In this document: positions 10,435 through 48,762 of the stretch, in pieces
Numbering within the stretch: the stretch's first letter is position 1
How the letters are laid out: each line of letters starts with the position of its first letter
From: Acidimicrobiales bacterium
Lineage (GTDB): Bacteria; Actinomycetota; Acidimicrobiia; Acidimicrobiales; Aldehydirespiratoraceae
DNA length: 64,000 nt
Direction: 5' to 3'
NCBI GenBank assembly: GCA_029263215.1
Contig: JAJCXY010000053.1
Span: 76,417-140,416 of the forward strand
The notes under the pieces: generated by a model
Databases searched by the model: none
What the model was told of the DNA's origin: nothing
Seen by the model: only the letters and a program-made list of their open reading frames with translations
Translations under genes and position numbers: made by a program

Positions 10435-10446
10435 GGAGGCGCTGGC

Positions 10447-19544: not shown

Positions 19545-19553
19545 GGCGAGAGC

Positions 19554-19592
19554 ATACCTCCGGGGGTATTCGGAGCATACCTCGGGGGGTAT
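19554..19592. promoter_or_regulatory. Two tandem CsoR-type operators: ATACCTCCGGGGGTAT (19554..19569) and ATACCTCGGGGGGTAT (19577..19592)
   Basis: Both fit the ATACC-N6-GGTAT GC-cored inverted repeat. They sit in the divergent csoR-like/sulP intergenic region, inside a direct repeat GAGCATACCTC(C/G)GGGGGTAT. Confidence 0.7.
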
Positions 19593-19593
19593 G

Positions 19594-19622
19594 TTGACTA
19601 ATCCTCTTAATGTCCGTATATT
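19594..19622 (+). promoter_or_regulatory. Sigma-70-type promoter TTGACT-17 nt-TATATT driving a leaderless SulP mRNA
   Basis: The -35 box is at 19594..19599 and the -10 box at 19617..19622. The ATG of sulP is at 19630, 7 nt after the -10 box, with no room for an SD sequence. Confidence 0.6.
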
Positions 19623-19629
19623 CGTACAT

Positions 19630-30696: not shown

Positions 30697-32163
30697 ATGA
30701 AAGTGGATGTTCGCGAAACCTTCGAGTCGGGCCTACCGCCCGACGACGGTCACCCCTACCGCACCGGCGTCTGGCGGCCCCAACACACCGAGTACGACGC
30801 CTGGGACCTCGACGTCGAGGGCACGATCCCCGACGACCTCAACGGCGTCTACATTCGAAACACCGAGAATCCGGTATTCGAGCCGATCCACCGCTACCAC
30901 CCCTTCGATGGCGATGGCATGTTGCACTCGATCTCCTTCGACAACGGCGAGGCCCGCTACTCCAACCGTTTCGTACGCACCGAGGCCTTTCTCGCCGAGC
31001 AGGAGGCGAAGCGGAGCCTTTGGGCCGGAATCACCGAACGCCCTTCCGACGCCATCGCCGAGCACGGGTGGGGTGCCCGCACGATGATGAAGGACAACGC
31101 CAGCACCGACGTGATCGTGCACCGGGGTGAGGCCCTCGCCAGCTTCTACCAGTGCGGTGAGCTCTACCGCCTCGACCCCATCACTCTCGAAACGCTCGGC
31201 ACCAGTGAGTGGGGAGGCCGCTTCCCGGCCGAAGGGGTGTCGGCGCATCCCCGCGTTGACGAGCACACCGGCGAGCTGCTGTTCTTCAACTATCACGCCC
31301 ATGCCCCCTACATGCACTACGGGGTTCTGAGCGCGGAGGGTGACCTCGTCACCTATGTCGACATCCCGCTGCCCGGGCCTCGGCTACCCCACGACATGAT
31401 GTTCACCGAGAACTGGACGATCCTCAACGACCTGCCCCTCTTCTGGGACCCCGATGCTCTCGCCGACGGGCACTACTCCAACACCTTCCGAAGGGACCTG
31501 CCGAGTCGTTTCGCGGTGATTCCCCGCCACGGCACCACCGACGACATCAGGTGGTTCGAAGCCGACCCCACCTTCGTCCTGCACTGGACCAATGCCTATG
31601 AGGACGGCGACGAGATAGTGCTCGACGGCTTCTTCCAACACAACCCCACTGCGAGGGGGGTTGATCGGCGCAAGTTCGAGCACAAGGGGTTCGAAACGCT
31701 CGACATGAATGTGCTCGATGCCCGCGCCCATCGCTGGCGCTTCAATCTCGTCACCGGGGTCACCCGCGAGCAGACAATGAGCGACCGGTGTTGTGAATTC
31801 CCGATGGTGAACGGGCGTCACTACGGCCGACGCCACCGCTACTCCTACAACGCTCGTTGTGCCCAGGGCCTGTTCGCTTTCGATGGACTGATCAAGCACG
31901 ATCTGGATACCGGTGTGGAGGAACTCTGGGAGGCACCGGACGGGGTGTTCGTGAGCGAGACGCCGATGGCGCCGCGCGACAACTCCACCGGAGAAGACGA
32001 CGGCTATCTCGTGACCTTCGCGTGCGATGTCGTCAACGACCGATCAGACGCCCTCGTGTTCGATGCCGCCAGCGTCGGCGACGGCCCGATCGCGAAGATC
32101 CGGCTCCCCGAACGCATCAGCAGCGGAACCCACTCCACCTGGGTACCCCGAGGCGACCTCTGA
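30697..32163 (+). CDS. Carotenoid/stilbene cleavage oxygenase (RPE65 family)
   Basis: 488-aa ORF. Contains HPFDGDGMLH, conserved His-bearing blades (SAHPRVD, LHWTNAY, EFPMVN) and a C-terminal RISSGTHSTW. Confidence 0.88.
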   Translation: MKVDVRETFESGLPPDDGHPYRTGVWRPQHTEYDAWDLDVEGTIPDDLNGVYIRNTENPVFEPIHRYHPFDGDGMLHSISFDNGEARYSNRFVRTEAFLAEQEAKRSLWAGITERPSDAIAEHGWGARTMMKDNASTDVIVHRGEALASFYQCGELYRLDPITLETLGTSEWGGRFPAEGVSAHPRVDEHTGELLFFNYHAHAPYMHYGVLSAEGDLVTYVDIPLPGPRLPHDMMFTENWTILNDLPLFWDPDALADGHYSNTFRRDLPSRFAVIPRHGTTDDIRWFEADPTFVLHWTNAYEDGDEIVLDGFFQHNPTARGVDRRKFEHKGFETLDMNVLDARAHRWRFNLVTGVTREQTMSDRCCEFPMVNGRHYGRRHRYSYNARCAQGLFAFDGLIKHDLDTGVEELWEAPDGVFVSETPMAPRDNSTGEDDGYLVTFACDVVNDRSDALVFDAASVGDGPIAKIRLPERISSGTHSTWVPRGDL

Positions 32164-33179: not shown

Positions 33180-34517
33180 TCATGATGCGATGGCGGGCCC
33201 CCGACCGCGGGAAGCGTCGGCGATGGTGCTCACCACCCGCTCGAGGTCGCCGTCGAGCGATCCGATGCTGACCCGGATGTGCTGCTCGGTGGTGGGGTCG
33301 ACGCGAAACGGGGCTCCGGGAGCGACGCCGATGCCGTGGGCCGCGAGCGCGACGACAGCGCGGAGTTCGTCGTCGACTGGAATCCACATATTGAGGCCCA
33401 CGCCGACCACGACAGGCACCCCACGCTGGGCCAGGAGTCGGCCGAGATCGACTCGACGCTGCCGGTAGGTGTCGGCGGCGACCGCCACCAGTTGCTCGGT
33501 GGCGGGATCGGTGAGCATCCCGAGCAGGATCTCCTGGATCAAACGACTGGTCCAGGACGGCCCGAGTTGGCGACGGCGAACGATGTTGCCGATCACTCTG
33601 GCGGGTCCGCCGAGAGCGGCAACGCGAAGGTCGGGGCCGTGCGATTTCGAGAAGCTGTGAATGTGGACGGTGTTGTCGGGGACGTGTTCACCCACGCTGT
33701 GGATCGGCACGCCGGTGGCGCCCGCTGAGTGGTCGTCTTCCACCACAACGGTGCGCGTCCCCGAAACGAGTTCGGCGATGGCCTTCGCCCGATCGGCGGA
33801 AGTGTGCACCCCCGTGGGGTTGTTGGCGCGCGGTTGGGTGAGGATGGCCACAGGGTCGGAGGTCATCGTGGCGCGGATCGACTCGAGATCGGGGCCTTCG
33901 CCATCGAGGGGAACACCCACGATTCGCGCCCCTGCGAGCTCCAACATGTCGAGCATCGGCGGGAAGGTGGGGTCCTCGACGATCACCGTGTCTCCGAGAC
34001 TGACCAGTTCTTTGATGACACGATCGAGCGCGTCCTGAGCGCCATCGACAACGGTGATGGCGCCCTGGTCGAAAGGCCACCGACGACGAAGCTCGTCCTC
34101 GAGAGCCACGAGCACCGGCGGGTCGACGTAGGAGGTGACGGCCACATCGGCGTGGAGGCGTTGGAGGACCGGCCCAATAGGCGGCAGGAGGCTCCGGTCG
34201 GGGGTGCCCGTGCTGAGATCGAGTTCGATGGTGCCGGGCTCGACCGGAACCTGCCAATAGCGACCCCCGAGCCCGACGCGGGTGGCTCGCACCGTCGTTC
34301 CTCGGCGGCGATCGGTGGTGATTGTTCCGTGAGCCTGGAGGATTCGCCAGGCGTCGGACACCGTGTTGGCGCTCACGCCCAGGTGAACGGCGAGGTTCCT
34401 GACCGTGGGGAGCTTGTCCCCCGAGCTCAGCCGGCCATCGGTGATCAGGGAGCCGATCGCCAACGCGATGCCCTGAGCCGACCGTTCCTCAAGCCTCGCC
34501 GCGATCAGAACTTCCAT
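33180..34517 (-). CDS. MocR/GabR-type regulator (GntR HTH fused to an aminotransferase-like PLP domain)
   Basis: ORF 33180..34559, with the start placed at MEVLIAARLEE (ATG 34517). The N-terminal HTH is LPTVRNLAVHLGVSANTVSDAWRIL. The C-terminal fold-type I domain includes SFSKSHGPDLR, which carries the PLP Lys. Confidence 0.85.
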   Translation of the reverse strand: MEVLIAARLEERSAQGIALAIGSLITDGRLSSGDKLPTVRNLAVHLGVSANTVSDAWRILQAHGTITTDRRRGTTVRATRVGLGGRYWQVPVEPGTIELDLSTGTPDRSLLPPIGPVLQRLHADVAVTSYVDPPVLVALEDELRRRWPFDQGAITVVDGAQDALDRVIKELVSLGDTVIVEDPTFPPMLDMLELAGARIVGVPLDGEGPDLESIRATMTSDPVAILTQPRANNPTGVHTSADRAKAIAELVSGTRTVVVEDDHSAGATGVPIHSVGEHVPDNTVHIHSFSKSHGPDLRVAALGGPARVIGNIVRRRQLGPSWTSRLIQEILLGMLTDPATEQLVAVAADTYRQRRVDLGRLLAQRGVPVVVGVGLNMWIPVDDELRAVVALAAHGIGVAPGAPFRVDPTTEQHIRVSIGSLDGDLERVVSTIADASRGRGPAIAS

Positions 34518-34523
34518 GAGAAA

Positions 34524-34540
34524 CTTTGTATAGAACAAAG
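34524..34540. promoter_or_regulatory. Inverted repeat CTTTGT-ATAGA-ACAAAG plus a nearby CCTTGTAAAGG, a candidate MocR binding region
   Basis: Lies in the AT-rich divergent intergenic region (34518..34634) between the MocR gene and the beta-ureidopropionase operon. Confidence 0.45.
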
Positions 34541-34634
34541 AGAACCTTGTAAAGGGCACCGGAGTTCAAATAACGTCGCAAGCGCAGGGGGCGTCCCCGG
34601 CTGCACCCACAGATCCCGAGCCCCGGAGGCAACC

Positions 34635-35477
34635 ATGTCCGATGTCGTGAAGGCTGCGATTCTGCAGACAGCGTGGACCGGCGATATGGAGTCGATGATC
34701 GAGTTGCACGAGAAGTATATGGCTGAGGCTGCCGCAGCTGGCACCCAGGTCATGTGCTTCCAGGAACTCTTCTACGGCCCCTATTTCTGCCAGGTCCAAG
34801 ACGCCGAGTTCTACAGCTACGCCGAAGCCATCCCCGATGGTCCCACCACCAAACGCTTCCAGGAAATCGCCGAGAAGTACGGCATGGTGCTGGTGCTGCC
34901 CATGTACGAAGAAGAGCAGCCCGGCGTTCTCTACAACACCGCCGCGGTCATCGACGCCGACGGCAGCTATCTCGGCAAGTACCGCAAGGTCCACATCCCC
35001 CAGGTCAAAGGCTTCTGGGAGAAGTTCTACTTCCGTCCCGGCAACCTCGGCTATCCCGTGTTCGAAACCGCCGTTGGCCGAGTAGCGGTAAACATCTGTT
35101 ACGACCGCCACTTCCCGGAAGGCTGGCGTGCCTTCGGGCTCAACGGTGCCCAGATCGTGTTCAACCCGTCGGCCACCAGCCGCGGCCTGTCTGCCTATCT
35201 GTGGCAACTCGAACAGACCGCGTCGGCCGCCGCCAACATGTACTTCGTCGGTGCGATCAACCGGGTCGGCATCGAGGATCTCGGCGACAACGACTTCTAC
35301 GGCACGTCCTACTTCGCCAACCCACGGGGCCAGTTCGTCGAAGGCACCGCGTCCGACACCGAAGAGGAACTGGTCATCCGCGACCTCGACCTCTCAATGG
35401 TCGACGAGGTTCGTAGCCAGTGGGCCTTCTATCGCGATCGTCGGCCCGACATGTACGGCGTCATCACCGAGGCCTGA
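34635..35477 (+). CDS. Beta-ureidopropionase (N-carbamoyl-beta-amino acid amidohydrolase), nitrilase superfamily
   Basis: This is the C-terminal 280 aa of track ORF 33729..35477, starting at MSDVVKAAILQTAW (ATG 34635). Contains FQELF (Glu), YRKVHIP (Lys) and VNICYDRHFPE (Cys), the nitrilase catalytic triad context. Confidence 0.88.
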   Translation: MSDVVKAAILQTAWTGDMESMIELHEKYMAEAAAAGTQVMCFQELFYGPYFCQVQDAEFYSYAEAIPDGPTTKRFQEIAEKYGMVLVLPMYEEEQPGVLYNTAAVIDADGSYLGKYRKVHIPQVKGFWEKFYFRPGNLGYPVFETAVGRVAVNICYDRHFPEGWRAFGLNGAQIVFNPSATSRGLSAYLWQLEQTASAAANMYFVGAINRVGIEDLGDNDFYGTSYFANPRGQFVEGTASDTEEELVIRDLDLSMVDEVRSQWAFYRDRRPDMYGVITEA

Positions 35478-36766
35478 TGACCATCAACGCAGAACTCCTC
35501 GAGCGTTACAAGGCCGTTCTCCCGTCGTATGTGAAGCCGCTTTACGCGGATCCCATCTCCATCGATCGCGGCGAAGGCGGATACATCTGGGACCTCGAGG
35601 GCGATCGCTACCTCGACTTCTTCGGTGGGGTGCTCACCACCATGATCGGCCACAGCAACCCCGAGGTGGTGGCTGCGGTGCAGACCCAGGCGGCCAAGGT
35701 GATGCACACGTCCACCCTCTATCTCTCGGAGCCGATGATCGAACTGGCCGAGGAGATCGCCGCCGCTTCGGGCATTCCCGACGCCCGGGTGTTCTTCACC
35801 ACCTCGGGCAGTGAAGCCAACGACACCGCCATCCTGCTGGCCACCAGCTACCGCAAATCAAACCAGGTGTTGGCCATGCGCAACAGCTACCACGGGCGCT
35901 CCTTCACCGCTCAGGCCATCACGTCTCATTCGTCGTGGTCGTCCACCAGCCTGTCCGGCCTCTCGGTGAACTTTGTGCAGGGTGCGTACCGGCTGCGGAG
36001 CCCCTTCCGCAACATGGACGACGCCGAGTTCACCGAAGCCTGCGTCGACGATCTCCAACAGGTGATCGACATGATGACTGCGGGCGACGTCGCCTGCCTG
36101 ATTGCCGAACCGATCCAGGGCGTCGGTGGGTTCGCCACCCCGCCCGACGGTTTCTTCGGCAGCCTCCAGAAGGTGCTGTCCAACCACGGCATCTTGTTCG
36201 TGAGCGACGAGGTGCAAACCGGCTGGGGCCGCACCGGCGAACATTTCTGGGGTTATCAGGCTCACGACATCGTGCCCGACATGCTCACCTTCGCCAAGGG
36301 AGTCGGCAACGGGATCACCCTCGCCGGCATCGTGGCGCGGGCCGAGATCACCGACACGATCACAGCCCACTCGTTCAGCACGTTCGGCGGCAACCCCCTG
36401 TCGGCCTCCGCAGGCTTGGCCACCCTGCGCTATGTGAAGAACAACGACCTCCAGGGTAACGCGCTCGCGATGGGTGCCCGGCTCGCCGGGGGCCTTCGGC
36501 CCGCCGTCGATCGCACCGACTGGATAGCCGAACTCCGCGGCAAGGGCCTGATGCAGGCCATCGAGATGGTGCAACCCGGCACCACCGAACCCGACCCCGA
36601 CAGGGCCAACGCGATCCTCGAAGGATGCAAGGATCGGGGCCTGCTCGTGGGCAAGGGCGGGCTCTATGGCAATGTCATACGCATCACACCGATGCTCGAT
36701 GTGAGCGCCGATGAGATCGACGAAGGCATCGCCGCCCTTGTCGAGACGATCGACTCGATCCAATAG
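35477..36766 (+). CDS. Class III (omega) aminotransferase, a probable beta-alanine/beta-aminoisobutyrate aminotransferase
   Basis: ORF 35420..36766, with the start placed at MTINAELLERY (ATG 35477), which overlaps the upstream TGA by 1 nt (TGATG). Contains SGSEANDTA, DEVQTGWGRTG and TFAKGVGNG. Confidence 0.88.
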   Translation: MTINAELLERYKAVLPSYVKPLYADPISIDRGEGGYIWDLEGDRYLDFFGGVLTTMIGHSNPEVVAAVQTQAAKVMHTSTLYLSEPMIELAEEIAAASGIPDARVFFTTSGSEANDTAILLATSYRKSNQVLAMRNSYHGRSFTAQAITSHSSWSSTSLSGLSVNFVQGAYRLRSPFRNMDDAEFTEACVDDLQQVIDMMTAGDVACLIAEPIQGVGGFATPPDGFFGSLQKVLSNHGILFVSDEVQTGWGRTGEHFWGYQAHDIVPDMLTFAKGVGNGITLAGIVARAEITDTITAHSFSTFGGNPLSASAGLATLRYVKNNDLQGNALAMGARLAGGLRPAVDRTDWIAELRGKGLMQAIEMVQPGTTEPDPDRANAILEGCKDRGLLVGKGGLYGNVIRITPMLDVSADEIDEGIAALVETIDSIQ

Positions 36767-36775
36767 GAGGTCATC

Positions 36776-38188
36776 ATGACAACACTCATCAAGAACGGAA
36801 CGGTCATCACCTCGACCGGTGCCGATCCGGCCGACGTTCTCATCGATGGTGAGCAGATCGCCGCGGTCCTGCAGCCCGGCTCCGAGGTTGCGGCCGCGGC
36901 CGAGCGTGGCGCGGAGAAGGTCATCGATGCCAAAGGTCTCTATGTGATCCCCGGCGGGGTCGATGGCCACACCCACATGGAGCTTCCGTTCGGCGGCACC
37001 TATGCATCCGACGATTTCGAAAACGGCACCCGCGCCGCGGCGTGGGGTGGCACCACCACCATCGTCGATTTTGCGGTGCAGACCGAAGGCGCCAGCGTGC
37101 GCGCCTGTCTCGATGAATGGTTTGCCAAGGCCGAGGGCAACTGTGCCATCGACTACGGCTTCCACCAGATCATCGGTGGAGTCGACGACCAGTCCCTGAA
37201 GGACATGGATGCCCTCGTGCAGGAAGGCATCACCAGCTTCAAGCTCTTCATGGCCTACCCCGGAGTGTTCTATTCCGACGACGGCAAGATCCTGCGGGCC
37301 ATGCAACAAGCTGCCGGCAACGGCTCCTTGATAATGATGCACGCCGAAAACGGTATCGCCATCGATCTGCTGGCCGAGCAGGCCGTGGAGCGGGGCGAGA
37401 CCGCCCCCATCAACCACGGCCTCGTGCGGCGGGCCGAGCTCGAAGGCGAAGCCACCCACCGCGCCATCCAGCTGGCCAAGGTCGGGGCCTGCCCGCTCTA
37501 CATCGTGCACCTTTCGGCTTCGGAGGCCCTCGAGCAGGTGATGATGGCGCGCGACAAGGGCGCCAACGTATTCGCCGAGACCTGCCCCCAGTACCTCTAC
37601 CTCAACGTCGAGGATCATCTGGGTAAGCCCGGCTTCGACGGGGCCGGCTACGTCTGCTCCACCCCCCTGCGCACCAAGCATGCCCACCATCACGAGGATC
37701 TCTGGAAGGGTCTTCGCACCAACGATCTCAGCGTGGTCGCCACCGACCACTGCCCCTTCTGCATGAAGGACCAAAAGGAGCTCGGGGTCGACGATTTCCG
37801 GGCCATTCCCAACGGCATCGGCGGGGTCGAGCATCGTATGGACCTGCTCTACCAGGGTGTGGTCAACGGCGAGATCTCCCTGCCCCGCTGGGTCGAACTG
37901 TGTGCCACCACCCCGGCCCGCATGTTCGGTCTCTACCCCCGCAAGGGCACCATCCAGCCCGGCGCCGATGCCGACATCGTGCTCTACGACCCCAACCACA
38001 CCTGGAGCATCAGCGTCGACAACCACCACATGAACATGGACTACTCGGCCTATGAAGGCATCGAGATCAACGGCCATGTCCACACCGTGATGTCGCGGGG
38101 CCGCACCATCATCGAAAACGACACCTACACCGGCTCGACCGGCCACGGCCAATACCTGCGCCGCGGCTTGTCGCAGTACCTCATCTGA
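36776..38188 (+). CDS. hydA: Dihydropyrimidinase (D-hydantoinase)
   Basis: 470-aa ORF. Contains GGVDGHTHMELPF, the FKLFMAY carboxylated-Lys context, MMHAENG and VATDHCPF. Confidence 0.92.
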   Translation: MTTLIKNGTVITSTGADPADVLIDGEQIAAVLQPGSEVAAAAERGAEKVIDAKGLYVIPGGVDGHTHMELPFGGTYASDDFENGTRAAAWGGTTTIVDFAVQTEGASVRACLDEWFAKAEGNCAIDYGFHQIIGGVDDQSLKDMDALVQEGITSFKLFMAYPGVFYSDDGKILRAMQQAAGNGSLIMMHAENGIAIDLLAEQAVERGETAPINHGLVRRAELEGEATHRAIQLAKVGACPLYIVHLSASEALEQVMMARDKGANVFAETCPQYLYLNVEDHLGKPGFDGAGYVCSTPLRTKHAHHHEDLWKGLRTNDLSVVATDHCPFCMKDQKELGVDDFRAIPNGIGGVEHRMDLLYQGVVNGEISLPRWVELCATTPARMFGLYPRKGTIQPGADADIVLYDPNHTWSISVDNHHMNMDYSAYEGIEINGHVHTVMSRGRTIIENDTYTGSTGHGQYLRRGLSQYLI

Positions 38189-38241
38189 TCCGGCGATCGC
38201 CGGGCCTCAGCACCACCCTCGCAGGAACCACAGGAGTCCTT

Positions 38242-39729
38242 GTGCACACAATCGGTCATCTAATCGACGGTAAGAGGCTCGACGGCACGTCGGGCCGCAC
38301 CTCTCCGGTCTTCAATCCGGCTACCGGCGAACAGACCGCCGAACTCGCGCTCGCCAGCATCGACGAGGTCGATGCCGCGGTGGCGTCGGCCCAGGCCGCC
38401 TTCGAGGGTTGGGGCCAGGTGAGTGTCGCCCGACGGATCAAGCTGATGCACACGTTTCGCAACCTGGTGGTCGACAACGCAGAGGAAGTCGGCCGCCTCC
38501 TCACCGCCGAGCACGGCAAGGTACTCAGCGACTCCGCGGGCGAAGTGGCCCGCTGTATCGAAAACATCGAGTTCGCCTGCGGGCTGGCCGACCATCTCAA
38601 GGGCAGCCTCAACGAGTCTGCCTCCACCGGAGTCGATGTCTACACGGTGCGTCGGCCCTTGGGTGTGGTGGCCGGCATCACCCCGTTCAACTTCCCGGTG
38701 ATGGTGCCCCTGTGGATGGCCCCCAACGCCATCGCCTGCGGCAACACCTTCGTTTTGAAGCCGTCGGAGCGCGATCCTTCGGCGCCGATGTTCTTGGCCG
38801 AACTCTTCCAGGAGGCGGGCTTCCCGCCCGGAGTTTTCAATGTCGTCAACGGCGACAAGGTTGCGGTCGACCGACTGCTCGAGCATCCCGATGTGAAGGC
38901 TGCGAGTTTCGTGGGCTCCACCCCGATCGCCAGATACGTATACACCACCGGTACGGCTCACGGTAAGCGGATCCAGGCCCTCGGTGGCGCCAAGAACCAC
39001 ATGGTGGTGCTCCCCGACGCCGACATCGACCTTGCCGCCGACTCGGCGGTGTCCGCGGCCTACGGCTCCGCCGGTGAGCGCTGCATGGCCATTTCGGTGG
39101 TCGCCGCGGTTGGCGACGTGGCGGATCCTCTCGTCGACGCCATCAGGGTGCGCATGGAGAAGCTCGTGATCGGCGATGGCACCGATCCCGCCTCGGAGAT
39201 GGGTCCCCTGATCACCCGCGAAGCGCGCGACCGGGTGGCCGGCTACGTCGGCGGGGCCGCCGATGCCGGGGCCGCTGTGGTGGTCGATGGACGCGAAGCG
39301 AGATTCGACAACGAAGGCCATTTCATCGGTGTGAGCCTCCTCGATCACGTCACCACCCAGATGGAGGCCTACAAGGACGAGATCTTCGGTCCTGTCCTCT
39401 GTGTGGTTCGCTGCGACACCTACGCCGAGGCGGTGCAGCTCATCGCCGACAACCCGTGGGGCAACGGGGCCGCCATCTTCACCCGCGACGGTGGAGCGGC
39501 CCGACAGTTCCAACAAGACGCCGATGCCGGCATGTTGGGAATCAACGTGCCGATCCCGGTGCCCGTCGGCTACCACTCCTTCGGGGGTTGGAAAGATTCC
39601 TTGTTCGGCGACATCACGATGTATGGCCCCGAGGGCATCAACTTCTACACCCGGCCCAAGGTGATCACATCGCGGTGGCCGGATCCAGCAGGAAGCTCGG
39701 TTGATCTCGGCTTCCCAACCAACCAATAG
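38242..39729 (+). CDS. mmsA: CoA-acylating (methyl)malonate-semialdehyde dehydrogenase
   Basis: 495-aa ORF with a GTG start. Contains FVLKPSERDP, GGAKNH and GERCMA (catalytic Cys), with an MmsA-type C-terminus. Confidence 0.9.
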   Translation: MHTIGHLIDGKRLDGTSGRTSPVFNPATGEQTAELALASIDEVDAAVASAQAAFEGWGQVSVARRIKLMHTFRNLVVDNAEEVGRLLTAEHGKVLSDSAGEVARCIENIEFACGLADHLKGSLNESASTGVDVYTVRRPLGVVAGITPFNFPVMVPLWMAPNAIACGNTFVLKPSERDPSAPMFLAELFQEAGFPPGVFNVVNGDKVAVDRLLEHPDVKAASFVGSTPIARYVYTTGTAHGKRIQALGGAKNHMVVLPDADIDLAADSAVSAAYGSAGERCMAISVVAAVGDVADPLVDAIRVRMEKLVIGDGTDPASEMGPLITREARDRVAGYVGGAADAGAAVVVDGREARFDNEGHFIGVSLLDHVTTQMEAYKDEIFGPVLCVVRCDTYAEAVQLIADNPWGNGAAIFTRDGGAARQFQQDADAGMLGINVPIPVPVGYHSFGGWKDSLFGDITMYGPEGINFYTRPKVITSRWPDPAGSSVDLGFPTNQ

Positions 39730-39734
39730 GAGAC

Positions 39735-40748
39735 ATGGGGGACATGGGGATGGACTACGGAGTTGTACTTCAGAACGATCCGCCGGCCTGGCGGGTCGTC
39801 GACCTGGCCAAGAAGGCCGAGACGCTGGGCTTCAGTTATGGCTGGACCTTCGACAGCCATGTGTTGTGGCAGGAGCCCTACGTCGTCTACAGCCAGATCC
39901 TGTCGGCCACCAACCGGATGATCGTCGGCCCGATGGTCACCAACCCAGGCACCCGCAACCCCACCGTCACCGCCAGCACTTTCGCCACCCTCAACGACAT
40001 GTTCGGCGACCGCACCGTCTGTGGAATCGGGCGAGGCGATTCCGCCATGCGGGTACTTGGTCACAAGCCCAAGAACCTGGCCACTCTGAGCGATTCCATG
40101 CGGGTCATCAAGGACCTCGCCGAGGGCCGCGAGACCACCTACAACGGCACGACCCAACAATTCCCATGGGCCAAGGACTCTTCGCTCAAGGTGCTCATGG
40201 CCGCTTATGGGCCCCGGGCGCTCAAGATGTGCGGAAGCGAGACCGACGGCTTCATCCTCCAGCTGGCCGATCCCACCATCGCCGAATGGATGATCGCTGC
40301 GGTACGCCAGGCTGCCGAAGAGGCCGGGCGCAACCCCGACGACCTCTACATCTGCGTGGCAGCCCCCGCCTATGTCGGCTCCGACATCGAGCACCAGCGC
40401 GACCAGTGCCGCTGGTTCGGAGGCATGGTGGGCAACCATGTGGCCGACCTGGTGGAGCGTTACGGCGGTGGGGGTGGCATCCCCCAGGCGCTCACCGACT
40501 ACATCAAGGGCCGTGAGGGCTACGACTACAGCGGGCACGGCAAAGCCGGCCACGACCACACCGACTTCGTCCCCGACGAGATCATCGATCGTTTCTGCCT
40601 CCTCGGCGACGAAGATGCGCACATTGCGAAGCTGAAGCAACTCGAAGCGCTCGGAGTCGACCAGTTCGCCATCTACTTGATGCACGACCAGAAGGACGAA
40701 ACCCTCAACGCCTACGGCCAACGCATCATCCCCGCCATGGCCGGCTAG
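39735..40748 (+). CDS. LLM-class oxidoreductase. From memory it resembles the F420-dependent TIGR03842-type family. The cofactor cannot be proven from the sequence.
   Basis: 337-aa ORF starting 5 nt after the mmsA stop. The luciferase-like TIM-barrel N-terminus is FSYGWTFDSHVLWQEP...GPMVTNPGTRNP...GIGRGDSA. Confidence 0.8.
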   Translation: MGDMGMDYGVVLQNDPPAWRVVDLAKKAETLGFSYGWTFDSHVLWQEPYVVYSQILSATNRMIVGPMVTNPGTRNPTVTASTFATLNDMFGDRTVCGIGRGDSAMRVLGHKPKNLATLSDSMRVIKDLAEGRETTYNGTTQQFPWAKDSSLKVLMAAYGPRALKMCGSETDGFILQLADPTIAEWMIAAVRQAAEEAGRNPDDLYICVAAPAYVGSDIEHQRDQCRWFGGMVGNHVADLVERYGGGGGIPQALTDYIKGREGYDYSGHGKAGHDHTDFVPDEIIDRFCLLGDEDAHIAKLKQLEALGVDQFAIYLMHDQKDETLNAYGQRIIPAMAG

Positions 40749-40850
40749 CGGCGGGTCTGGATCATCGATTCTTCCCCCGATCCGATCGACGATCCGCTCG
40801 TCAAGGAACAACTGATCAGCCAGCGCGCCGCGAGCGAAGACCGCCTCGAC

Positions 40851-41735
40851 ATGCTGCAGCGCGTCACCCGTCAGGTGGTGGTGTTCGCGGTCTTCGTGGT
40901 GCTGATGGGCTTCGCGTACTCCGGCTACAAGGCATTCGGCCAGTCGATCGACGACAAGCAGCACGACTGGTGGGCGGTCGGGTCGGTGCTGCCCCGCACC
41001 GACGATCTCAACATGCCGCCCATCCTCGACATCCTGGCGGAGTTCAATGTGATTCAGGGCGGCACCGACAAGGTGCTCGGTCGTCTCCTGTTCGAGGAGT
41101 CACTCTTCACCCTTCGCGAAGCCGCCCTCGGGTTCGCGGTCGGAACCGTCGTAGGAATGGGCATCGCCATGGCGTTGGCCCGCTCGAAGCCCCTCGAACG
41201 GGGACTGTTGCCCTATGTGGTGGCCAGCCAGACGATCCCCCTGATCGCCATCGCCCCCATCGTCGTCATATGGGGCCGCAAGAATGTCGACTTCATGCCT
41301 TGGGAGTGGCAGGACTGGATGTCGGTGTCGATCATCGCCACCTTCCTCACCTTTTTCCCGGTCGCGGTCAACGGGCTCAGGGGACTCCAGTCGCCCCGGC
41401 CCGAGAATTTGGAGCTGATGGAGTCGTACGCCGCGAGCTGGAACCAGACCCTGTGGCGACTACGTCTTCCCGCATCGGTGCCCTACCTGTTCGCGGCCCT
41501 GAAGATAGCGGCTACCGCGAGCATCGTGGGTGCCATCGTCGGTGAGATCTCCGCCGGGGTCGGCGGGGGGCTCGGCCGCCGGATATTCCTCGAGGCCCAG
41601 CGCTACACCACCGGTCCCGAACGTCTCTACGCGTCGGTGATCGGTTCGGCGATCCTCGGCATTTTCGTATTTCTTGTGATTACCGGCGTCGAGCGACTCG
41701 TGCTCGGCCATCAAGGCCGGGAGGCTGTTACATGA
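40851..41735 (+). CDS. ABC transporter permease (NitT/TauT family)
   Basis: 294-aa ORF with multiple TM helices and the EAA-like loop ESYAASWNQTLWRLRLPASVPYLFAALK. Confidence 0.85.
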   Translation: MLQRVTRQVVVFAVFVVLMGFAYSGYKAFGQSIDDKQHDWWAVGSVLPRTDDLNMPPILDILAEFNVIQGGTDKVLGRLLFEESLFTLREAALGFAVGTVVGMGIAMALARSKPLERGLLPYVVASQTIPLIAIAPIVVIWGRKNVDFMPWEWQDWMSVSIIATFLTFFPVAVNGLRGLQSPRPENLELMESYAASWNQTLWRLRLPASVPYLFAALKIAATASIVGAIVGEISAGVGGGLGRRIFLEAQRYTTGPERLYASVIGSAILGIFVFLVITGVERLVLGHQGREAVT

Positions 41736-42508
41736 GTGCCCACGCAGTAGCGGTGAAGGCTGCATCGAAGGTCTTCAATCAGGGGAAGAGCAACGAGGTC
41801 CACGCCCTCGACGAAATCGATCTCACCGTGGAGGACGGCGAATTCATCACCCTCATCGGTCCTTCCGGGTGTGGCAAGAGCACCTTGCTGAGGCTCATAG
41901 CCGCCCTCACCGAGCCCACGGGCGGAGAGGTCGAGGTGAAGGGGAAGTCGGCCGAGCAGGCCCGCCTCGATCAGGACTACGGGATGGCATTTCAGCGGGC
42001 CGGACTCTTCGACTGGCGCACCGTTTCCAAAAACATCGAACTCCCGTTGGAGTTGATGGGGTGGAGTCGCGGCGACCGGGTTCGTCGAGCAGGAGAGATG
42101 CTCGAGTTGGTGAAGCTCCCGGAGTTCGGTGGCCATCACCCTTCTGAGCTCTCAGGCGGCATGCAGCAGCGCGTGGCCATCGCCAGGTCCTTGGCCTTCA
42201 GCCCATCGCTGCTGCTCATGGACGAGCCGTTCGGTGCTCTCGACGAGATGACCCGCGAGCACATGCAGGACGAACTCCTTCGCATCTGGTCCGAGACCCA
42301 CACCACGGTGGTGTTCGTCACCCACTCGATCCCTGAGGCTGCATATCTGTCGTCGAGGGTGGTGGTGATGTCGCCGCGGCCGGGGCGAATCGCCACGATC
42401 GTCGACGTCGATCTCGGCGACCGCAGCGACGACACCAGGGAGGATCCCGCCTTCTTCGAGAAGGTCACCGAGGTCCGTGAGGCGCTGAGGGCGGTGGAAT
42501 CGGCGTGA
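41732..42508 (+). CDS. ABC transporter ATP-binding protein (NitT/TauT family)
   Basis: 258-aa ORF. Contains GPSGCGKST, LSGGMQQRVAIARSL and LLMDEPFGALD. It overlaps the upstream stop (ATGA). Confidence 0.9.
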   Translation: MSAHAVAVKAASKVFNQGKSNEVHALDEIDLTVEDGEFITLIGPSGCGKSTLLRLIAALTEPTGGEVEVKGKSAEQARLDQDYGMAFQRAGLFDWRTVSKNIELPLELMGWSRGDRVRRAGEMLELVKLPEFGGHHPSELSGGMQQRVAIARSLAFSPSLLLMDEPFGALDEMTREHMQDELLRIWSETHTTVVFVTHSIPEAAYLSSRVVVMSPRPGRIATIVDVDLGDRSDDTREDPAFFEKVTEVREALRAVESA

Positions 42509-43296
42509 CCCAGATTCTCGGACGGCTCAGACGATCGACGGCACCGGTCATAGCCGGAGTTGTCATCGTGGTCGGCTGGGAGTTGGCCCTGCTCATCCTC
42601 AACCCGGGTGGCTTCGTTCTCCCACCACCGAGTGACATCATCGGAGCGGTGTTCGAAAATTGGAGCGAGGTCTTCGATGCGGCACGAAACACCGGCTTCA
42701 TCATCGTCACCGGGCTCGTGGTGGGCGTTCTCGTCGGCGTCGCGGCGGCCCTTCTCGTCACCCGGTTCCGGCTGGCCAACGAGGTCATCACCCCGCTCGC
42801 GGTCTCGCTGAACGCGGTGCCGATCATCGCTCTGGCCCCGATTTTCAATGCCTGGTTCGGGCTGCTGAGTCCACGGTCGAATCAGGCGATCGTGGTGGTG
42901 CTGGTGTTCTTTCCCATCTTCATCAACACGGCCAAGGGACTGACCCAGGTCGAGCCGAGTCAGATAGAGCTGATGGAGTCGTATGCCGCCGGCAAGTGGA
43001 CGATCACTCGTGAGGTCCGTATCCCCAACGCCATGCCGTTCTTCTTCACCGCTCTGAAGCTCTCGACTTCGCTGGCGGTGATCGCGGCCATCGTGGCGGA
43101 GTACTTCGGCGGCCGACAAGACGCTCTCGGTCCGCTCATCACCCAGTCGGCGGGGCTCACGCGATACGCGGATGCTTGGGCCGCGGTGTTGGCCGGCACC
43201 GTCATCGGCGGCATGCTCTACGTCTTGACGGGCGCCCTCGAAAGGGTGGCCATGCCGTGGCACACTTCGATGCGTGCCGATCAACAATCGAACTAG
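42505..43296 (+). CDS. ABC transporter permease (NitT/TauT family), second subunit
   Basis: 263-aa ORF with a GTG start overlapping the upstream stop. The EAA-like loop is ESYAAGKWTITREVRIPNAMPFFFTALK. Confidence 0.85.
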   Translation: MTQILGRLRRSTAPVIAGVVIVVGWELALLILNPGGFVLPPPSDIIGAVFENWSEVFDAARNTGFIIVTGLVVGVLVGVAAALLVTRFRLANEVITPLAVSLNAVPIIALAPIFNAWFGLLSPRSNQAIVVVLVFFPIFINTAKGLTQVEPSQIELMESYAAGKWTITREVRIPNAMPFFFTALKLSTSLAVIAAIVAEYFGGRQDALGPLITQSAGLTRYADAWAAVLAGTVIGGMLYVLTGALERVAMPWHTSMRADQQSN

Positions 43297-43323
43297 GAAA
43301 AGGTCCCAATAGGAGGGGTAGTT

Positions 43324-44484
43324 ATGAAGAAGAGTCTGTTATGGCGACTACTGGCAGTACTGCTGGTGTTCGGCCTGTTCGCGGCTGCTTGCGGCGACGA
43401 TGACGACGACGGAGCGGCGGCTGGCGATGATGCCGCCGACGACACCGGCGACGATGAGCCCGCGGAGCTCACCGAAGTCGCTCTGCAGCTTCAGTGGGTG
43501 CCCCAGTCCCAGTTCGCCGGCTACTTTGCCGCCGTCGAGCTCGGCTTCTATGAAGATGTCGGCCTCGATGTCACCGTCATCGAGGGTGGTGTCGACATCG
43601 TTCCGGCCACCGTGCTCGATTCGGGCGGCGCCGACTTCGCGATCTCGTGGGTTCCACGCGGCCTCGTGCCTCGTGAAGAGGGCCTCAACATCACCAACAT
43701 CGCCCAGGTGTTCCAGCGCAGCGGCACCCTCCAGGTGTCGTTCGCCGATTCGGGGATCAACTCCGTTGATGATCTCGAAGGCAAGAACGTCGGCAACTGG
43801 GGCTTCGGTAACGAGTTCGAGCTGTTCGCGGGACTGGTGAGTGCGGGTCTCGATCCCACTGGCGACGTCACCCTGGTTCAACAGGACTTCAACATGACCG
43901 CCCTCATCAACGGCGACATCGATGCTGCTCAGGCGATGATCTACAACGAGTACGCACAGCTACTCGAGACGATAAATCCCGACACTGGTGAACTGTTCCA
44001 GCCCGAGGATCTCACCATCATCGACTGGAACGATGTGGGCACCGCCATGCTCAATGATGCGATCTGGGCTGATGCCGATCGCCTCGAGGATGATGCCGAC
44101 TACCGGGCCACCGCAGTGGCCTTCGTCGAGGCTTCGCTAAAGGGTTGGGCCCATTGCCGCGACAACCCCCAGGAGTGCACCGACATTGTGGTCGGGGTTG
44201 GCACCCCGTTCGGCGGCCCTGCCCATCAGGCCTGGATGATGAACGAGGTCAATGCTCTGATCTGGCCGTCACCGGGTGGTGTGGGCGTCATGGACGATGC
44301 CCTCTACGCCCAGACGGTCGACATCGCCACCAGTCAAGGGATCCTGGCCTCGGCTCCCGACGACGGAGCCTTCCGCACCGACATCGCCGAGGAGGCGGTG
44401 GCCAACCTCGAAGCCCAGGGCATCGACGTGACCGGTACAGGATTCACCAAGGGAGTGGTCGAGATCGCGGAGGGCGGCGAGTAG
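43324..44484 (+). CDS. ABC transporter substrate-binding lipoprotein (NMT1/THI5-like)
   Basis: 386-aa ORF with lipobox LFAAAC followed by an acidic linker. Contains LQLQWVPQSQFAGYFAA, typical of NMT1/SsuA-like binding proteins. Confidence 0.85.
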   Translation: MKKSLLWRLLAVLLVFGLFAAACGDDDDDGAAAGDDAADDTGDDEPAELTEVALQLQWVPQSQFAGYFAAVELGFYEDVGLDVTVIEGGVDIVPATVLDSGGADFAISWVPRGLVPREEGLNITNIAQVFQRSGTLQVSFADSGINSVDDLEGKNVGNWGFGNEFELFAGLVSAGLDPTGDVTLVQQDFNMTALINGDIDAAQAMIYNEYAQLLETINPDTGELFQPEDLTIIDWNDVGTAMLNDAIWADADRLEDDADYRATAVAFVEASLKGWAHCRDNPQECTDIVVGVGTPFGGPAHQAWMMNEVNALIWPSPGGVGVMDDALYAQTVDIATSQGILASAPDDGAFRTDIAEEAVANLEAQGIDVTGTGFTKGVVEIAEGGE

Positions 44485-44498
44485 CCCAAGACCTGAAG

Positions 44499-44529
44499 AG
44501 ATGCGGCGGGGTATTCCCCCGCCGCATCT
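44499..44529. terminator. Strong hairpin AGATGCGGCGGGG-TATTC-CCCCGCCGCATCT between convergent genes, a probable bidirectional intrinsic terminator
   Basis: A perfect 13-bp GC-rich stem, 15 nt after the SBP stop and 3 nt before the dehalogenase stop. It is followed by TT on the plus strand. Confidence 0.7.
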
Positions 44530-44531
44530 TT

Positions 44532-45410
44532 CTAGGGAAGCCAGGCGGCTAGAGCTTCACCGATCTCGTTCGGGCTGTCTTCCTGGATGAAGTGATTGCC
44601 GGCCACCGTTACCTCGGTCTGGTTGGGCCAGGTGCGGCAATAGTCGCGTTGGGGACCGGTGAGGATCGCTCCCGGCTCGGCGTTGATGAAGAGCTTCGGC
44701 ATTTCCGACGACGACAGCCATTCGCCATAGGCGGCAACGATCTCGACGACGTCGGCCGGTTCGCCCTCGATCGGAATCTCCCGCGGCCAGGTGAGGGTGG
44801 GGCGGCGGTGTTTCGGCTCGACGAAGGGCCGGCGGTACTCGTCGTGTTCCTCGGGCGCCAGGTCACGCAGGATCGACCCCGGCAGCACGGCCTCTACGAA
44901 GAGGTTCTTGTCGATCACCATGTCCTCACCGGCCTCTGAGCGGAAGGCCTCGAAGATCGGGCGGGCAGCCTCGGGCCAGGTGTCCCAGGTGACCGGGCAC
45001 ACGATGGACTCCATGTAGCAGATGCCGGCCACCCGGTCGCGGTAGCGGTTGGCCCAGTCGAAGCCGAGTGCAGACCCCCAGTCGTGGATCACGAAGGTGA
45101 CACCGTCGCCGAGGTCGAGTTGATCGAGGAGACCGTCGAGGTACTCGCGGTGTTCGACGAAGCGGTAGGAGCCGGGACCGGTGTCGTCGAGCTTGTCGGA
45201 GTCGCCCTGGCCGATCAGGTCGGGCACGATGCAGCGAGCCCGGTCGGCGACGTGGGGCACGATGTTGCGCCACAGGTACGACGAGGTCGGGTTGCCGTGC
45301 AAGAAGACGACGGCATTGCCTTCACCCCGTTCGTGATAGGCCATCTGCTTGCCGTTGACGGTCTTGTAGGACTTGCTGAGCGGGGTGGTGCCGAACGGTG
45401 ATGTGGACAT
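44532..45410 (-). CDS. dhaA: Haloalkane dehalogenase (HLD-II, DhaA-like alpha/beta hydrolase)
   Basis: 292-aa ORF. FLHGNPTSSYLWRNIVPH and VIHDWGSALGF are near-identical, from memory, to the DhaA halide-binding Asn/Trp and nucleophile Asp regions. Confidence 0.8.
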   Translation of the reverse strand: MSTSPFGTTPLSKSYKTVNGKQMAYHERGEGNAVVFLHGNPTSSYLWRNIVPHVADRARCIVPDLIGQGDSDKLDDTGPGSYRFVEHREYLDGLLDQLDLGDGVTFVIHDWGSALGFDWANRYRDRVAGICYMESIVCPVTWDTWPEAARPIFEAFRSEAGEDMVIDKNLFVEAVLPGSILRDLAPEEHDEYRRPFVEPKHRRPTLTWPREIPIEGEPADVVEIVAAYGEWLSSSEMPKLFINAEPGAILTGPQRDYCRTWPNQTEVTVAGNHFIQEDSPNEIGEALAAWLP

Positions 45411-45463
45411 GACGAGGTCCTCTCGATCTGGTCTTCGGAGTCAGAGCCTTGCACACTGGGATC

Positions 45464-46330
45464 ATGTTCGACCTCGACTCGACCCTGGCCGTACTCCTCG
45501 ATGTAGAGGTGCTGGATTCGAGTCTCTTGAGCGGAGGCGATGTGGCCGACTCGTTCAGGGTCGTTCTCGGCGATGGGCGGGTGGTGTTCGCCAAGACGAA
45601 GCGAGACGCTCCCACCGACTTCTTCAGCACCGAAGCCGCCGGTCTGCATTGGTTGCAAGATGCCGACGCCGTACCGGTGCCGACGGTTGTGCTGGTGAGC
45701 GATGATCCACCCCTTCTTGTCCTCGAATGGATCGATGAGGGGTCACCCGGGTCGAACACCGAGGCCGAGTTCGGGAGGGCCTTGGCCGAACTGCACAGGG
45801 CCGGGGCCCACACCTTCGGTCGTGAAGATCGACGCAGTACGGGGAGTCGTGGTCTGCCCAACGAGCCCTGCGACACGTGGGTCGAGTTCTATGCCACCCA
45901 ACGCCTCCTACCCTTGGCCCGTCTCGCTGTCGACGGTGCCTCCCTGCCTGTCACTGTGATCGCAGATATCAAGCATGTGGCCGACCGGCTCGAGGAGTTC
46001 GGTGGCCCGCCGGAGGCCCCGGCTCGACTTCATGGCGACCTCTGGGCCGGCAACCGTCTGGTCGACACGGTCGGCGACAGCTGGTTGATCGACCCCGCGA
46101 CCCACGGCGGTCATCGAGAGTTCGATCTCGCGATGATGCGGTTGTTCGGTGGGTTCGGGGCAGCCTGTTTCACCGCCTACGACGAGGTGGAGCCTCTGGC
46201 CGATGGGTGGGAGGACCGCGTTGCGCTGCATCAGCTCGCTCCCCTGATCGTGCACGCCGTCAAGTTCGGTGGAGGCTATGTGCCCGCCACCGAGCGGGCC
46301 CTGCGGGCCGTGCTAGACCGAACTTCATGA
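45464..46330 (+). CDS. Fructosamine/ketosamine-3-kinase family protein
   Basis: ORF 45449..46330, with either a TTG start at 45449 or an ATG at 45464. Contains LHGDLWAGNRL and the catalytic-loop region IDPATHGGHREFDLAM. Confidence 0.8.
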   Translation: MFDLDSTLAVLLDVEVLDSSLLSGGDVADSFRVVLGDGRVVFAKTKRDAPTDFFSTEAAGLHWLQDADAVPVPTVVLVSDDPPLLVLEWIDEGSPGSNTEAEFGRALAELHRAGAHTFGREDRRSTGSRGLPNEPCDTWVEFYATQRLLPLARLAVDGASLPVTVIADIKHVADRLEEFGGPPEAPARLHGDLWAGNRLVDTVGDSWLIDPATHGGHREFDLAMMRLFGGFGAACFTAYDEVEPLADGWEDRVALHQLAPLIVHAVKFGGGYVPATERALRAVLDRTS

Positions 46331-47109: not shown

Positions 47110-47114
47110 TCTTG

Positions 47115-48752: not shown

Positions 48753-48762
48753 GGCGGTCGGC

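Follow-up and report, generated by a model that had tools for sequence, protein, structure and literature searches.

The 64,000-nucleotide (64-kb) stretch of DNA analysed here, hereafter the window, belongs to an Acidimicrobiales bacterium (assembly GCA_029263215.1, contig JAJCXY010000053.1, positions 76,417 to 140,416 of the forward strand) and carries, at positions 33180-44484, a regulator and nine genes that together resemble a cluster for the reductive degradation of pyrimidines (the Pyd pathway), with an oxidoreductase of the luciferase-like monooxygenase (LLM) class in their midst and with no gene for the first enzyme, dihydropyrimidine dehydrogenase (PydA or PreTA). From comparisons of sequences and gene neighbourhoods it appears probable that the LLM protein (39735-40748, + strand) is an F420H2-dependent uracil/thymine reductase, replacing dihydropyrimidine dehydrogenase and unrelated to it.

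The nine co-directional genes (34635-44484) are tightly spaced and lie opposite the divergent, MocR-type regulator; every gene named in the original prediction was found at its coordinates in the list of open reading frames (ORFs) and was recognised by NCBIfam or Pfam. The gaps between the nine genes are, in order, -1, 9, 53, 5, 102, -4, -4 and 27 nt; both the TGATG overlap between the aminotransferase start and the upstream TGA and the 5-nt gap between mmsA and the LLM gene, to which attention had been drawn, can be read in the sequence. The first gene (34635-35477, +) encodes a CN-hydrolase of the beta-ureidopropionase/N-carbamoylputrescine amidase clade (predicted PydC role, with N-carbamoyl-beta-alanine as the substrate; PF00795, 226 bits), to which, among solved structures, the beta-ureidopropionases of Drosophila and man come closest (2vhh, 6ftq, 8pt4; E ~1e-58), with N-carbamoylputrescine amidase tying, and which falls below every equivalog cut-off in NCBIfam (AguB gives 253 bits where 410 are required). 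It is followed by a class-III GabT-like aminotransferase (35477-36766, +; PF00202, 320 bits), for which the PydD role is predicted and whose best solved relatives include 4-aminobutyrate transaminases, by a dihydropyrimidinase/D-hydantoinase (PydB; 36776-38188, +; TIGR02033 equivalog, 540 bits against a cut-off of 393), and by a CoA-acylating (methyl)malonate-semialdehyde dehydrogenase (MMSDH, the product of mmsA; 38242-39729, +; TIGR01722, 699 bits against a cut-off of 448). Then comes the LLM gene (PF00296, 193.5 bits; TIGR03842, 576 bits against a cut-off of 295); the gene itself stands as described, its start at 39735 probably does not, the likelier start being the third of three in-frame ATGs, at 39750, because homologues of 332-333 aa begin there. 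The last four genes specify an ATP-binding cassette (ABC) importer composed of a first permease (40851-41735, +; PF00528), an ATPase of the NitT/TauT type (41732-42508, +; PF00005; best NCBIfam models of the SaoA, TauB and NtrCD types), a second permease (42505-43296, +; PF00528) and an NMT1/THI5-type lipoprotein solute-binding protein (43324-44484, +; PF09084, 120 bits); the N-terminus of the latter shows a signal peptide and a Cys lipobox-like motif, the solved structures related to it are 4nmy, ThiY, which binds formylaminopyrimidine (3ix1), and THI5, and it is the probable receptor for pyrimidine bases.

The MocR-type protein (33180-34559, -), which joins a GntR helix-turn-helix domain to a pyridoxal-phosphate aminotransferase fold (Pfam GntR and Aminotran_1_2) and whose best NCBIfam models (PtsJ, EhuR, PdxR) all score under their cut-offs, is likely to be the regulator of the operon; a homologue occupies the same divergent position in 10 of 80 related loci. 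MocR/GabR-type regulators bind direct repeats, and the divergent intergenic (promoter/operator) region read from the sequence (34560-34634, 75 nt) holds a 15-nt direct repeat of the form CCCCGG-N9 (CCCCGGCTGCACCCA at 34595-34609 and CCCCGGAGGCAACCA at 34621-34635, 26 nt apart, 80% identity), which may nevertheless be due to chance, since there are only two copies of so short a repeat. No Rfam family was matched in the operon, so that neither a riboswitch nor another known RNA element was found there, and a scan for consensus promoters and terminators gave matches at background level only. At the other end, the strong terminator predicted for the array is borne out by a G+C-rich hairpin of 15 bp between convergent genes (44492-44536; dG -35.8 kcal/mol; z = -7.0, none of 200 shuffles folding as well), which is taken to act as a bidirectional operon terminator and which the simple terminator scan missed because its T-run is short; G+C along the window varies between 62 and 68%.

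As regards the first enzyme, the absence of PydA/PreTA from the cluster and from the whole window was confirmed: tblastn with PreT and PreA of E. coli K-12 returned no match in the 64 kb, and Pfam found no DHO_dh domain in 52 of the 58 predicted ORFs (all those of at least 280 aa), tblastn covering the remainder. The PreA probe is effective over large distances, as it recovers PreA in five phyla at 39-62% identity, with matches in Proteobacteria, Bacillota, Bacteroidota and Deinococcota. Genes of the rut type are likewise missing from the window.

Family, fold and conserved residues of the LLM protein

The original prediction had left open to which LLM subfamily the protein belongs. In NCBIfam release 20 (June 2026) it falls, over its full length, into TIGR03842 (F420_CPS_4043), a model of LLM class F420-dependent oxidoreductases (575.8 bits against a cut-off of 295.45, E = 2.4e-173, model positions 1-329 of 329); of the 19 other models among the 20 NCBIfam matches listed, 18, including all the strong ones, describe F420-class LLMs. 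A phmmer search of the PDB places Mer first (6e-31), followed by fHMAD, FGD and Adf (1e-10 to 1e-11) and by luciferase (1e-7); the same ranking is obtained when the AlphaFold model is submitted to Foldseek, Mer being again the nearest structure (E = 1e-19, TM 0.76), so that the nearest solved structures are, in order, Mer with F420, then FGD, Adf and FGD2, with the luciferases that use flavin mononucleotide (FMN) matching much more weakly. In sequence and in fold, therefore, the LLM protein belongs to the F420-dependent subgroup of PF00296, resembling F420 enzymes more than it does those that use FMN. Proteins of the TIGR03842 type are numerous, with more than 8000 in databases and at least 597 matched genome stretches at species level.

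Residue conservation was examined in 81 sequences of the family mapped onto Mer of M. jannaschii, the roles of whose residues have been described (PMC11094777). The motif G65-P66-M67-V68-T69-N70-P71, corresponding to G59-P60-G61-V62-T63-N64-P65 of Mer, is kept in 77-81 of the 81 sequences, and both clades of the family retain P66, V68, T69, N70 and P71 without exception; in Mer the GPxVTNP loop of beta-3 contains a non-prolyl cis-peptide which serves as a backstop beneath the deazaflavin (PMC11094777). Also invariant in the family are Asp102, equivalent to Asp96 of Mer, which touches the pyrimidine ring of the pterin (PMC11094777), and Gln176, at position C of Mer. This position appears as Gln178 in PMC11094777, but Asn (VLINASN) stands at 178 in PDB 8qpl / 8qq8 as aligned, and because of this mismatch it is described here only as a carboxamide; for Glu6, Gly61-Val62, Asp96 and Phe233 the numbering of 8qpl / 8qq8 agrees with that of the paper. 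Glu6, the residue with which beta-1 ends in Mer and which is catalytic there, is lost, as it aligns with Val11 (Val in 78 of the 81 sequences, Thr in 3). Sharing the Mer loop, Asp102 and Gln176 while lacking Glu6, the protein would therefore be an F420-type hydride-transfer enzyme acting on a different substrate.

Which substrate may be suggested by the residues that are peculiar to the family. Invariant in both deep clades, and not in Mer, are S41, W45, E47, R100, S103 and Y158, the cluster W227-F228, N234-H235 and D238, and, within a family-specific invariant insertion of 12 residues, R260, Y263-D264-Y265 and H268. The hydrophobic pocket that in Mer accommodates the tail of tetrahydromethanopterin (H4MPT; Val8, Phe233) is replaced in the family by the polar, invariant Gln/Lys13, Asn234 and His235, which would suit a small polar ring. 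Two candidates for a universal proton donor were rejected: His42, which corresponds to the catalytic His of FGD and Adf, occurs in no more than 59 of the 81 sequences, and Cys207, brought to mind by the catalytic Cys of dihydropyrimidine dehydrogenase, is not common to both clades. Equally rejected were two family assignments of the protein as a whole, as a true Mer (126.1 bits against the TIGR03555 cut-off of 348.7, with the catalytic Glu gone) and as a member of the PydA/PreA family (it contains PF00296 only, with no DHO_dh domain, PF01180, and no ferredoxin domain).

Gene neighbourhoods of the family in two phyla

A scan of a genome collection with the LLM protein provided the best 80 of the at least 597 matched stretches, one per species, at 64-85% identity and amounting to 1.48 Mb, in which the proteins of the window were searched by tblastn; these loci come from Acidimicrobiia, Streptomyces, Rhodococcus, Kutzneria, Actinoplanes, Lentzea and Rubrobacteraceae, and among the matches listed those nearest to the LLM protein belong to metagenome-assembled genomes (MAGs) of Acidimicrobiales. 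Co-occurrence with dihydropyrimidinase, which had been put forward as a check, is extensive: in 71 of the 80 loci the dihydropyrimidinase gene lies upstream of the LLM gene and in the same orientation, directly adjacent in 39 of these, while in 31 of the remaining 32 the two are separated by a gap of about 1.5 kb, the length of mmsA, and mmsA is present in 30; of the nine loci in which dihydropyrimidinase is lacking, six lie on truncated contigs whose upstream part is shorter than 1.6 kb. The CN-hydrolase was found in 64 of the 80 loci and the first ABC permease co-occurs with the LLM gene in 39. There are 22 loci that combine dihydropyrimidinase and LLM (19 of them also with the CN-hydrolase) and contain neither aminotransferase nor MMSDH within 10 kb, because of which the LLM gene is seen to travel with the ring-processing core and not with the beta-alanine branch. 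Partners may also be exchanged: a locus of Rubrobacteraceae (L029) has a dihydropyrimidinase of only 43% identity, an M20-type hydrolase, an NCS1 permease and LysE, with the LLM gene retained, and in many Actinomycetes an NCS1 permease (17 loci), in some a PucR regulator (7 loci), stands in for the ABC importer and for MocR; the linkage between LLM and Pyd genes thus persists when partner genes are swapped. F420 genes are normally scattered in Actinomycetota; a locus of Rhodococcus sp. NPDC057529 (L047, ~575-14500) is unusual in that it brings together cofD, an M20 Zn hydrolase, dihydropyrimidinase, LLM, npdG, fbiC and pntB, an actinobacterial form of the supercluster described next.

A second set of neighbourhoods comes from an alphaproteobacterial sister clade. 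A search of plasmid proteins revealed 41%-identical proteins in Leisingera and Paracoccus, named by PGAP after the TIGR03842 family and encoded on the plasmids NZ_CP081074.1 of Leisingera caerulea (L083 / L085) and NZ_CP067126.1 of Paracoccus alcaliphilus (L084). In both genera the LLM gene closes an operon that runs cofG-cofH-cofD-cofC-cofE-npdG-LLM, in which cofGHDCE account for the complete biosynthesis of F420, npdG for an NADPH-dependent F420 reductase, and the LLM protein is the single client enzyme; since a client with its own NADPH:F420 reductase consumes F420H2, the direction of the reaction follows. The divergent operon in Leisingera consists of pntA-pntB, an aminotransferase, a Zn-dependent hydrolase, hydA (dihydropyrimidinase) and an NCS1 nucleobase symporter; as pntAB, the proton-translocating transhydrogenase, heads this Pyd operon, a dedicated supply of NADPH is implied. 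No preTA was found within ~45 kb of the Leisingera locus. DUF1330 genes recur at the edges of the Leisingera and Paracoccus loci.

A scan of metagenomes with the Leisingera protein gave a further 80 loci (71-100% identity, 0.92 Mb), in which npdG is directly upstream of the LLM gene in 54 of the 70 with sufficient upstream sequence and the individual cof genes are found in 41-55 of the 80. Twenty-four of them are well flanked (at least 4 kb on both sides of the block), and 13 of these have a Pyd hydrolase; seven more have the genes for an aminotransferase and for MMSDH where the flank ends, so that 20 of the 24 carry Pyd genes. A TetR-type gene beside the Leisingera LLM gene has 40% identity to E. 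coli RutR (E = 1e-52), and its product keeps L74, W77 and W167, three of the four residues named as uracil-binding in PMC4325133, L78 being replaced by Met. RutR-like genes of 36-46% identity to E. coli RutR occur in 36 of the 80 metagenomic loci, and in 18 of the 24 that are well flanked.

The same search for the canonical enzyme in these neighbourhoods gave a consistent answer: tblastn detected no PreA-like gene in the approximately 160 LLM loci of the two phyla (2.4 Mb); the metagenomic loci (0.92 Mb) gave no match to PreT either, and the actinobacterial loci (1.48 Mb) only one weak PreT-like match. A plasmid of Thalassospira marina offers the complementary arrangement, preT-preA-Zn hydrolase being followed at intervals by a TetR gene (35% to RutR) and by aminotransferase-MMSDH-CN-hydrolase-ABC genes; its Zn hydrolase and aminotransferase are 54% and 70% identical to those of Leisingera, its CN-hydrolase, MMSDH and ABC ATPase 59%, 55% and 54% identical to those of the window. 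The presence of the same accessory genes, with PreTA in one case and LLM in the other (accompanied by cof genes and npdG in Proteobacteria), is therefore the signature of a non-orthologous displacement.

Interpretation of the locus and of its surroundings

The proposal, made in the original prediction, that the LLM protein supplies the missing F420H2-linked reduction of uracil or thymine is supported at the level of comparative genomics, where all of the tests favour it; indeed, the phylogenetic association of this LLM subfamily with dihydropyrimidinase and beta-ureidopropionase, on which the proposal was said to depend, is very strong and extends over two phyla. Several points weigh against it. 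PydA/PreTA is absent from the 64-kb window, and a copy elsewhere in the genome is possible; synteny supports a role in the pathway and not a particular substrate, and TIGR03842 itself is, in release 20, a hypothetical equivalog without assigned function. No proton donor can be assigned from the conservation in the 81 sequences, and the AlphaFold model, while confirming the fold, has a moderate pLDDT of 80 and is poor in two loops, 101-112 and 261-274, the probable lid of the active site. F420 biosynthesis genes were not seen in the window, and the coupling of the LLM gene to F420 synthesis and reduction is a property of the loci of its homologues and not of the window, where the availability of the cofactor would follow from two other F420-type enzymes and from what is known of the phylum. 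Finally, in two full-length loci, L037 and L070, the LLM gene has neither dihydropyrimidinase nor CN-hydrolase nearby, and in L073 it is accompanied by the CN-hydrolase (bup) without dihydropyrimidinase. The LLM proteins of L037 (Streptomyces boninensis) and L070 (a Candidatus Binatia MAG), both TIGR03842 members of 66-68% identity, may represent a second function or simply unlinked copies; directly upstream of the former is an ornithine cyclodeaminase/mu-crystallin gene, and the neighbours of the latter are a redoxin and a DNA methylase.

These two copies outside any Pyd context are among the observations that would be expected if the LLM enzyme acted on some other heterocycle (a modified uracil, orotate, an unsaturated hydantoin) and the operon served rings that are imported already reduced or that are not pyrimidines (dihydropyrimidines, 5-substituted hydantoins, cyclic ureides), in which case no uracil reductase would be missing. 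Dihydropyrimidinases are also D-hydantoinases, the CN-hydrolases include D-carbamoylases and the NCS1 permeases include transporters of hydantoin and allantoin; moreover, the substrates named above for the ABC binding protein and for the LLM protein are predicted ones. We nevertheless consider this explanation unlikely. A beta-alanine-type aminotransferase (32 loci) and/or MMSDH (32 loci) is found near the LLM gene in 50 of the 80 actinobacterial loci, and such a linkage points to beta-alanine or beta-aminoisobutyrate and hence to the skeleton of uracil or thymine; the operons of the sister clade are flanked by RutR-like regulators, of which the Leisingera copy keeps three of the four contact residues; a homologous ABC ATPase belongs to a PreTA cluster for uracil/thymine; and a dedicated route from NADPH to F420H2 implies a reduction, of which dihydropyrimidines have no need. 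The direct import of dihydropyrimidines, mentioned as an alternative in the original prediction, is weakened by the 54%-identical ABC ATPase of the PreTA cluster and by the RutR-like regulators, although it keeps some standing.

If the LLM enzyme belongs to the pathway, it could still be placed at another redox step, namely as an F420H2-dependent (methyl)malonate-semialdehyde reductase analogous to PydE/RutE, which would detoxify the aldehyde to 3-hydroxypropionate, the ring reductase being encoded elsewhere. Reductases of the PydE type are known in extended Pyd clusters (PMC7332683), the LLM gene of the window begins 5 nt after mmsA, and Adf, FGD and the hydroxymycolate dehydrogenase, all engaged in alcohol/carbonyl chemistry, are among its structural relatives. 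The nearest of these relatives is, however, Mer and not the alcohol-dehydrogenase clade, the catalytic His of FGD and Adf being unconserved; such a reductase would be redundant where MMSDH is present, as it is in the window, and in the 22 loci without aminotransferase and MMSDH within 10 kb no semialdehyde would be generated locally. It would also leave unexplained the lack of a PreA-like gene in some 160 loci, when canonical clusters keep preTA beside the same accessories, and we regard it as quite improbable. Hardly credible is a third possibility, also considered in the original prediction, that the LLM protein is an FMN monooxygenase attacking the uracil ring oxidatively in the manner of RutA, which is likewise a member of PF00296 and likewise acts on uracil: BLASTP against E. 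coli RutA gives a best E of 0.12, the nearest structures are all F420 enzymes, no RutA model occurs among the 20 NCBIfam matches listed, mostly of the F420 class, and RutA is not among the listed top 50 Foldseek matches. Furthermore, no flavin reductase or RutB-F genes lie nearby, it is an operon for F420 synthesis and reduction that is attached to the sister clade, and the products of the Rut pathway require no dihydropyrimidinase.

With the LLM protein as the F420H2-dependent uracil/thymine reductase, a complete path can be proposed. Uracil or thymine would be imported by the NMT1-type ABC system; the LLM enzyme would bind F420H2 as Mer does, and a hydride would move from F420H2 to C6 of the base, an active-site acid protonating C5, to yield 5,6-dihydrouracil or 5,6-dihydrothymine. 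The ring would then be opened by dihydropyrimidinase, the CN-hydrolase would release beta-alanine or beta-aminoisobutyrate with NH3 and CO2, the class-III aminotransferase would take off the second nitrogen to give (methyl)malonate semialdehyde, and MMSDH would convert the latter into acetyl-CoA or propionyl-CoA. The reductant would in the sister clade be supplied from the same operon (synthesis by cofGHDCE, NADPH-dependent reduction by npdG), and in Actinomycetota it would presumably be drawn from the general pool of the cell. The potential of the F420/F420H2 couple is close to that of NAD(P)H, and the chemistry proposed for the LLM enzyme would therefore be thermodynamically equivalent to the NADPH-dependent reaction of PydA.

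A wider reading, in which all of these elements are joined, can be advanced only tentatively: the proteins of TIGR03842 may be unrecognised metal-free, F420H2-dependent dihydropyrimidine dehydrogenases, which would provide the standard entry into pyrimidine degradation in much of the Actinomycetota and, in marine Alphaproteobacteria, the very reason for making F420. The latter would then possess a RutR-controlled, often plasmid-borne module of F420 synthesis, npdG, reductase and Pyd genes, and selection may favour it because, in seawater with little iron, it dispenses with the four [4Fe-4S] clusters that PydA requires. The reductive pathway is the most widespread recycling route for the nitrogen of uracil and thymine; if its first, committing enzyme had a non-homologous, metal-free counterpart with a different hydride carrier, a gene annotated so far in many genomes only as a TIGR03842 family oxidoreductase would correct those reconstructions of Actinomycetota (Streptomyces, Rhodococcus, the abundant marine and sponge-associated Acidimicrobiia) that now show no start to pyrimidine degradation. 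F420 would gain a concrete role in aerobic Proteobacteria, a pyrimidine-induced cofactor would explain the traces of F420 in Paracoccus and Oligotropha, and an oxygen-tolerant, iron-free biocatalyst would become available for the reduction of uracil-type rings.

Outside the operon, the original prediction had counted several other F420-type enzymes in the window; their number is two. A second LLM protein (1915-2961, -) has its best match in TIGR03559, with 314 bits just below the cut-off of 335 bits, and a marginal F420H2_quin_red (FDOR-A) protein (4166-4618, -) scores 24.6 bits. An SRPBCC/polyketide-cyclase-like protein (2961-3458, -) abuts this second LLM gene and a nitroreductase-SRPBCC fusion is encoded at 7546-8745 (-); the stretch 1915-8745 suggests that the organism uses F420. 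A thymidine/pyrimidine-nucleoside phosphorylase (11316-12638, -; NF004490, 563 bits), some 22 kb upstream of the Pyd operon and not clustered with it, could be a source of free thymine or uracil for the pathway; an MTHFR-family gene (12692-13789, -) adjoins it. Immediately upstream of the regulator region lies a gene for a protein of the RPE65/carotenoid-cleavage-oxygenase family (30697-32163, +; 426 bits). Just downstream of the operon, a fructosamine-kinase-like gene (45449-46330), a 791-aa Amidohydro_3 protein (46377-48752, +) and then a CobW/metal-chaperone GTPase (48652-49686, +) were recorded; the Amidohydro_3 protein, although beside a ureide-catabolic operon, may be unrelated to it. 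Homologues of MttB in non-methanogens usually act on quaternary amines, and an MttB-family (trimethylamine methyltransferase-like) protein is found at 54271-55818 (+; 634 bits), preceded by an IclR regulator (53576-54298, +) and a PrpD/MmgE-family protein (52227-53573, +). A sulfur-related group (19507-21387, 21949-22542, 22897-24273, 25245-26774 and 16888-18063) contains two SulP/STAS permeases, three rhodanese-domain proteins, of which one is fused to a metallo-beta-lactamase and another to an AhpC-like domain, together with a regulator of the Crp type.

Comparison with known systems

An F420-linked entry into pyrimidine catabolism had been thought undescribed, and none was encountered in the full-text literature, the scope of which does not extend to subscription journals. 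The 2021 review of F420 mentions pyrimidines only in relation to photolyase and to the synthesis of FO, records no F420-dependent enzyme studied in bacteria other than Actinobacteria, reports F420 only at trace level in Paracoccus and Oligotropha, and treats the reason why Proteobacteria make it as an open question (PMC8498797).

Compared to the canonical Pyd clusters (preTA of E. coli, pydABC(DE) of Brevibacillus/Bacillus, the plasmid of Thalassospira marina), the LLM loci have the same types of downstream and accessory genes, that is dihydropyrimidinase, a CN-hydrolase and/or M20 beta-ureidopropionase, beta-alanine aminotransferase, MMSDH, an ABC or NCS1 importer and a RutR-type regulator. 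Unlike them, they encode no DHO_dh, Fe-S or FAD subunits and possess instead a metal-free TIM-barrel LLM protein with predicted use of F420H2, to which the proteobacterial loci add genes for the synthesis and reduction of F420. With Mer the LLM protein has 26-27% identity, the GPxVTNP loop, the Asp at 96/102 and the carboxamide at the end of beta-6 in common; it differs from Mer in lacking the catalytic Glu6, in the polar residues of the tail pocket and in its own insertion. The organisms that bear it are not known for an H4MPT-linked methanogenic one-carbon metabolism. RutA shares the PF00296 superfamily and the substrate uracil, but it employs FMN and O2 for an oxidative opening of the ring, in the context of RutB-G, and has no detectable pairwise similarity to the LLM protein.

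Two further systems approach the one proposed here. For the napsamycin/mureidomycin group there is genetic evidence, from Streptomyces, that the putative F420/FMN enzyme NpsU / SSGG-03002 reduces the C5=C6 bond of uracil (PMC10714638); it acts, however, on a uridyl-peptide antibiotic and not on the free base, and in vitro activity was not obtained (PMC10714638). Homology of NpsU / SSGG-03002 to the LLM protein was considered and rejected, its sole annotated relatives (at weak BLASTP E) being F420 enzymes of the PPOX-class split beta-barrel type. The other system is the reductive uric-acid cluster of Chloroflexota, in which a PF00296 protein, a putative F420 enzyme, has been predicted bioinformatically in place of a PydA-like reductase (PMC12507026). 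The logic is the same, as a PF00296 protein stands where UacX/YgfK stands elsewhere and would reductively dearomatise a uracil-type ring ahead of an amidohydrolase; the substrate is a xanthine/urate derivative as opposed to uracil or thymine, and the enzyme can be likened to TIGR03842 by description only. Set against these precedents, what is probably new in the present case, as far as sequence analysis can indicate, is the combination of a known pathway with a putative first enzyme that is non-homologous to the canonical one and would depend on a different cofactor.

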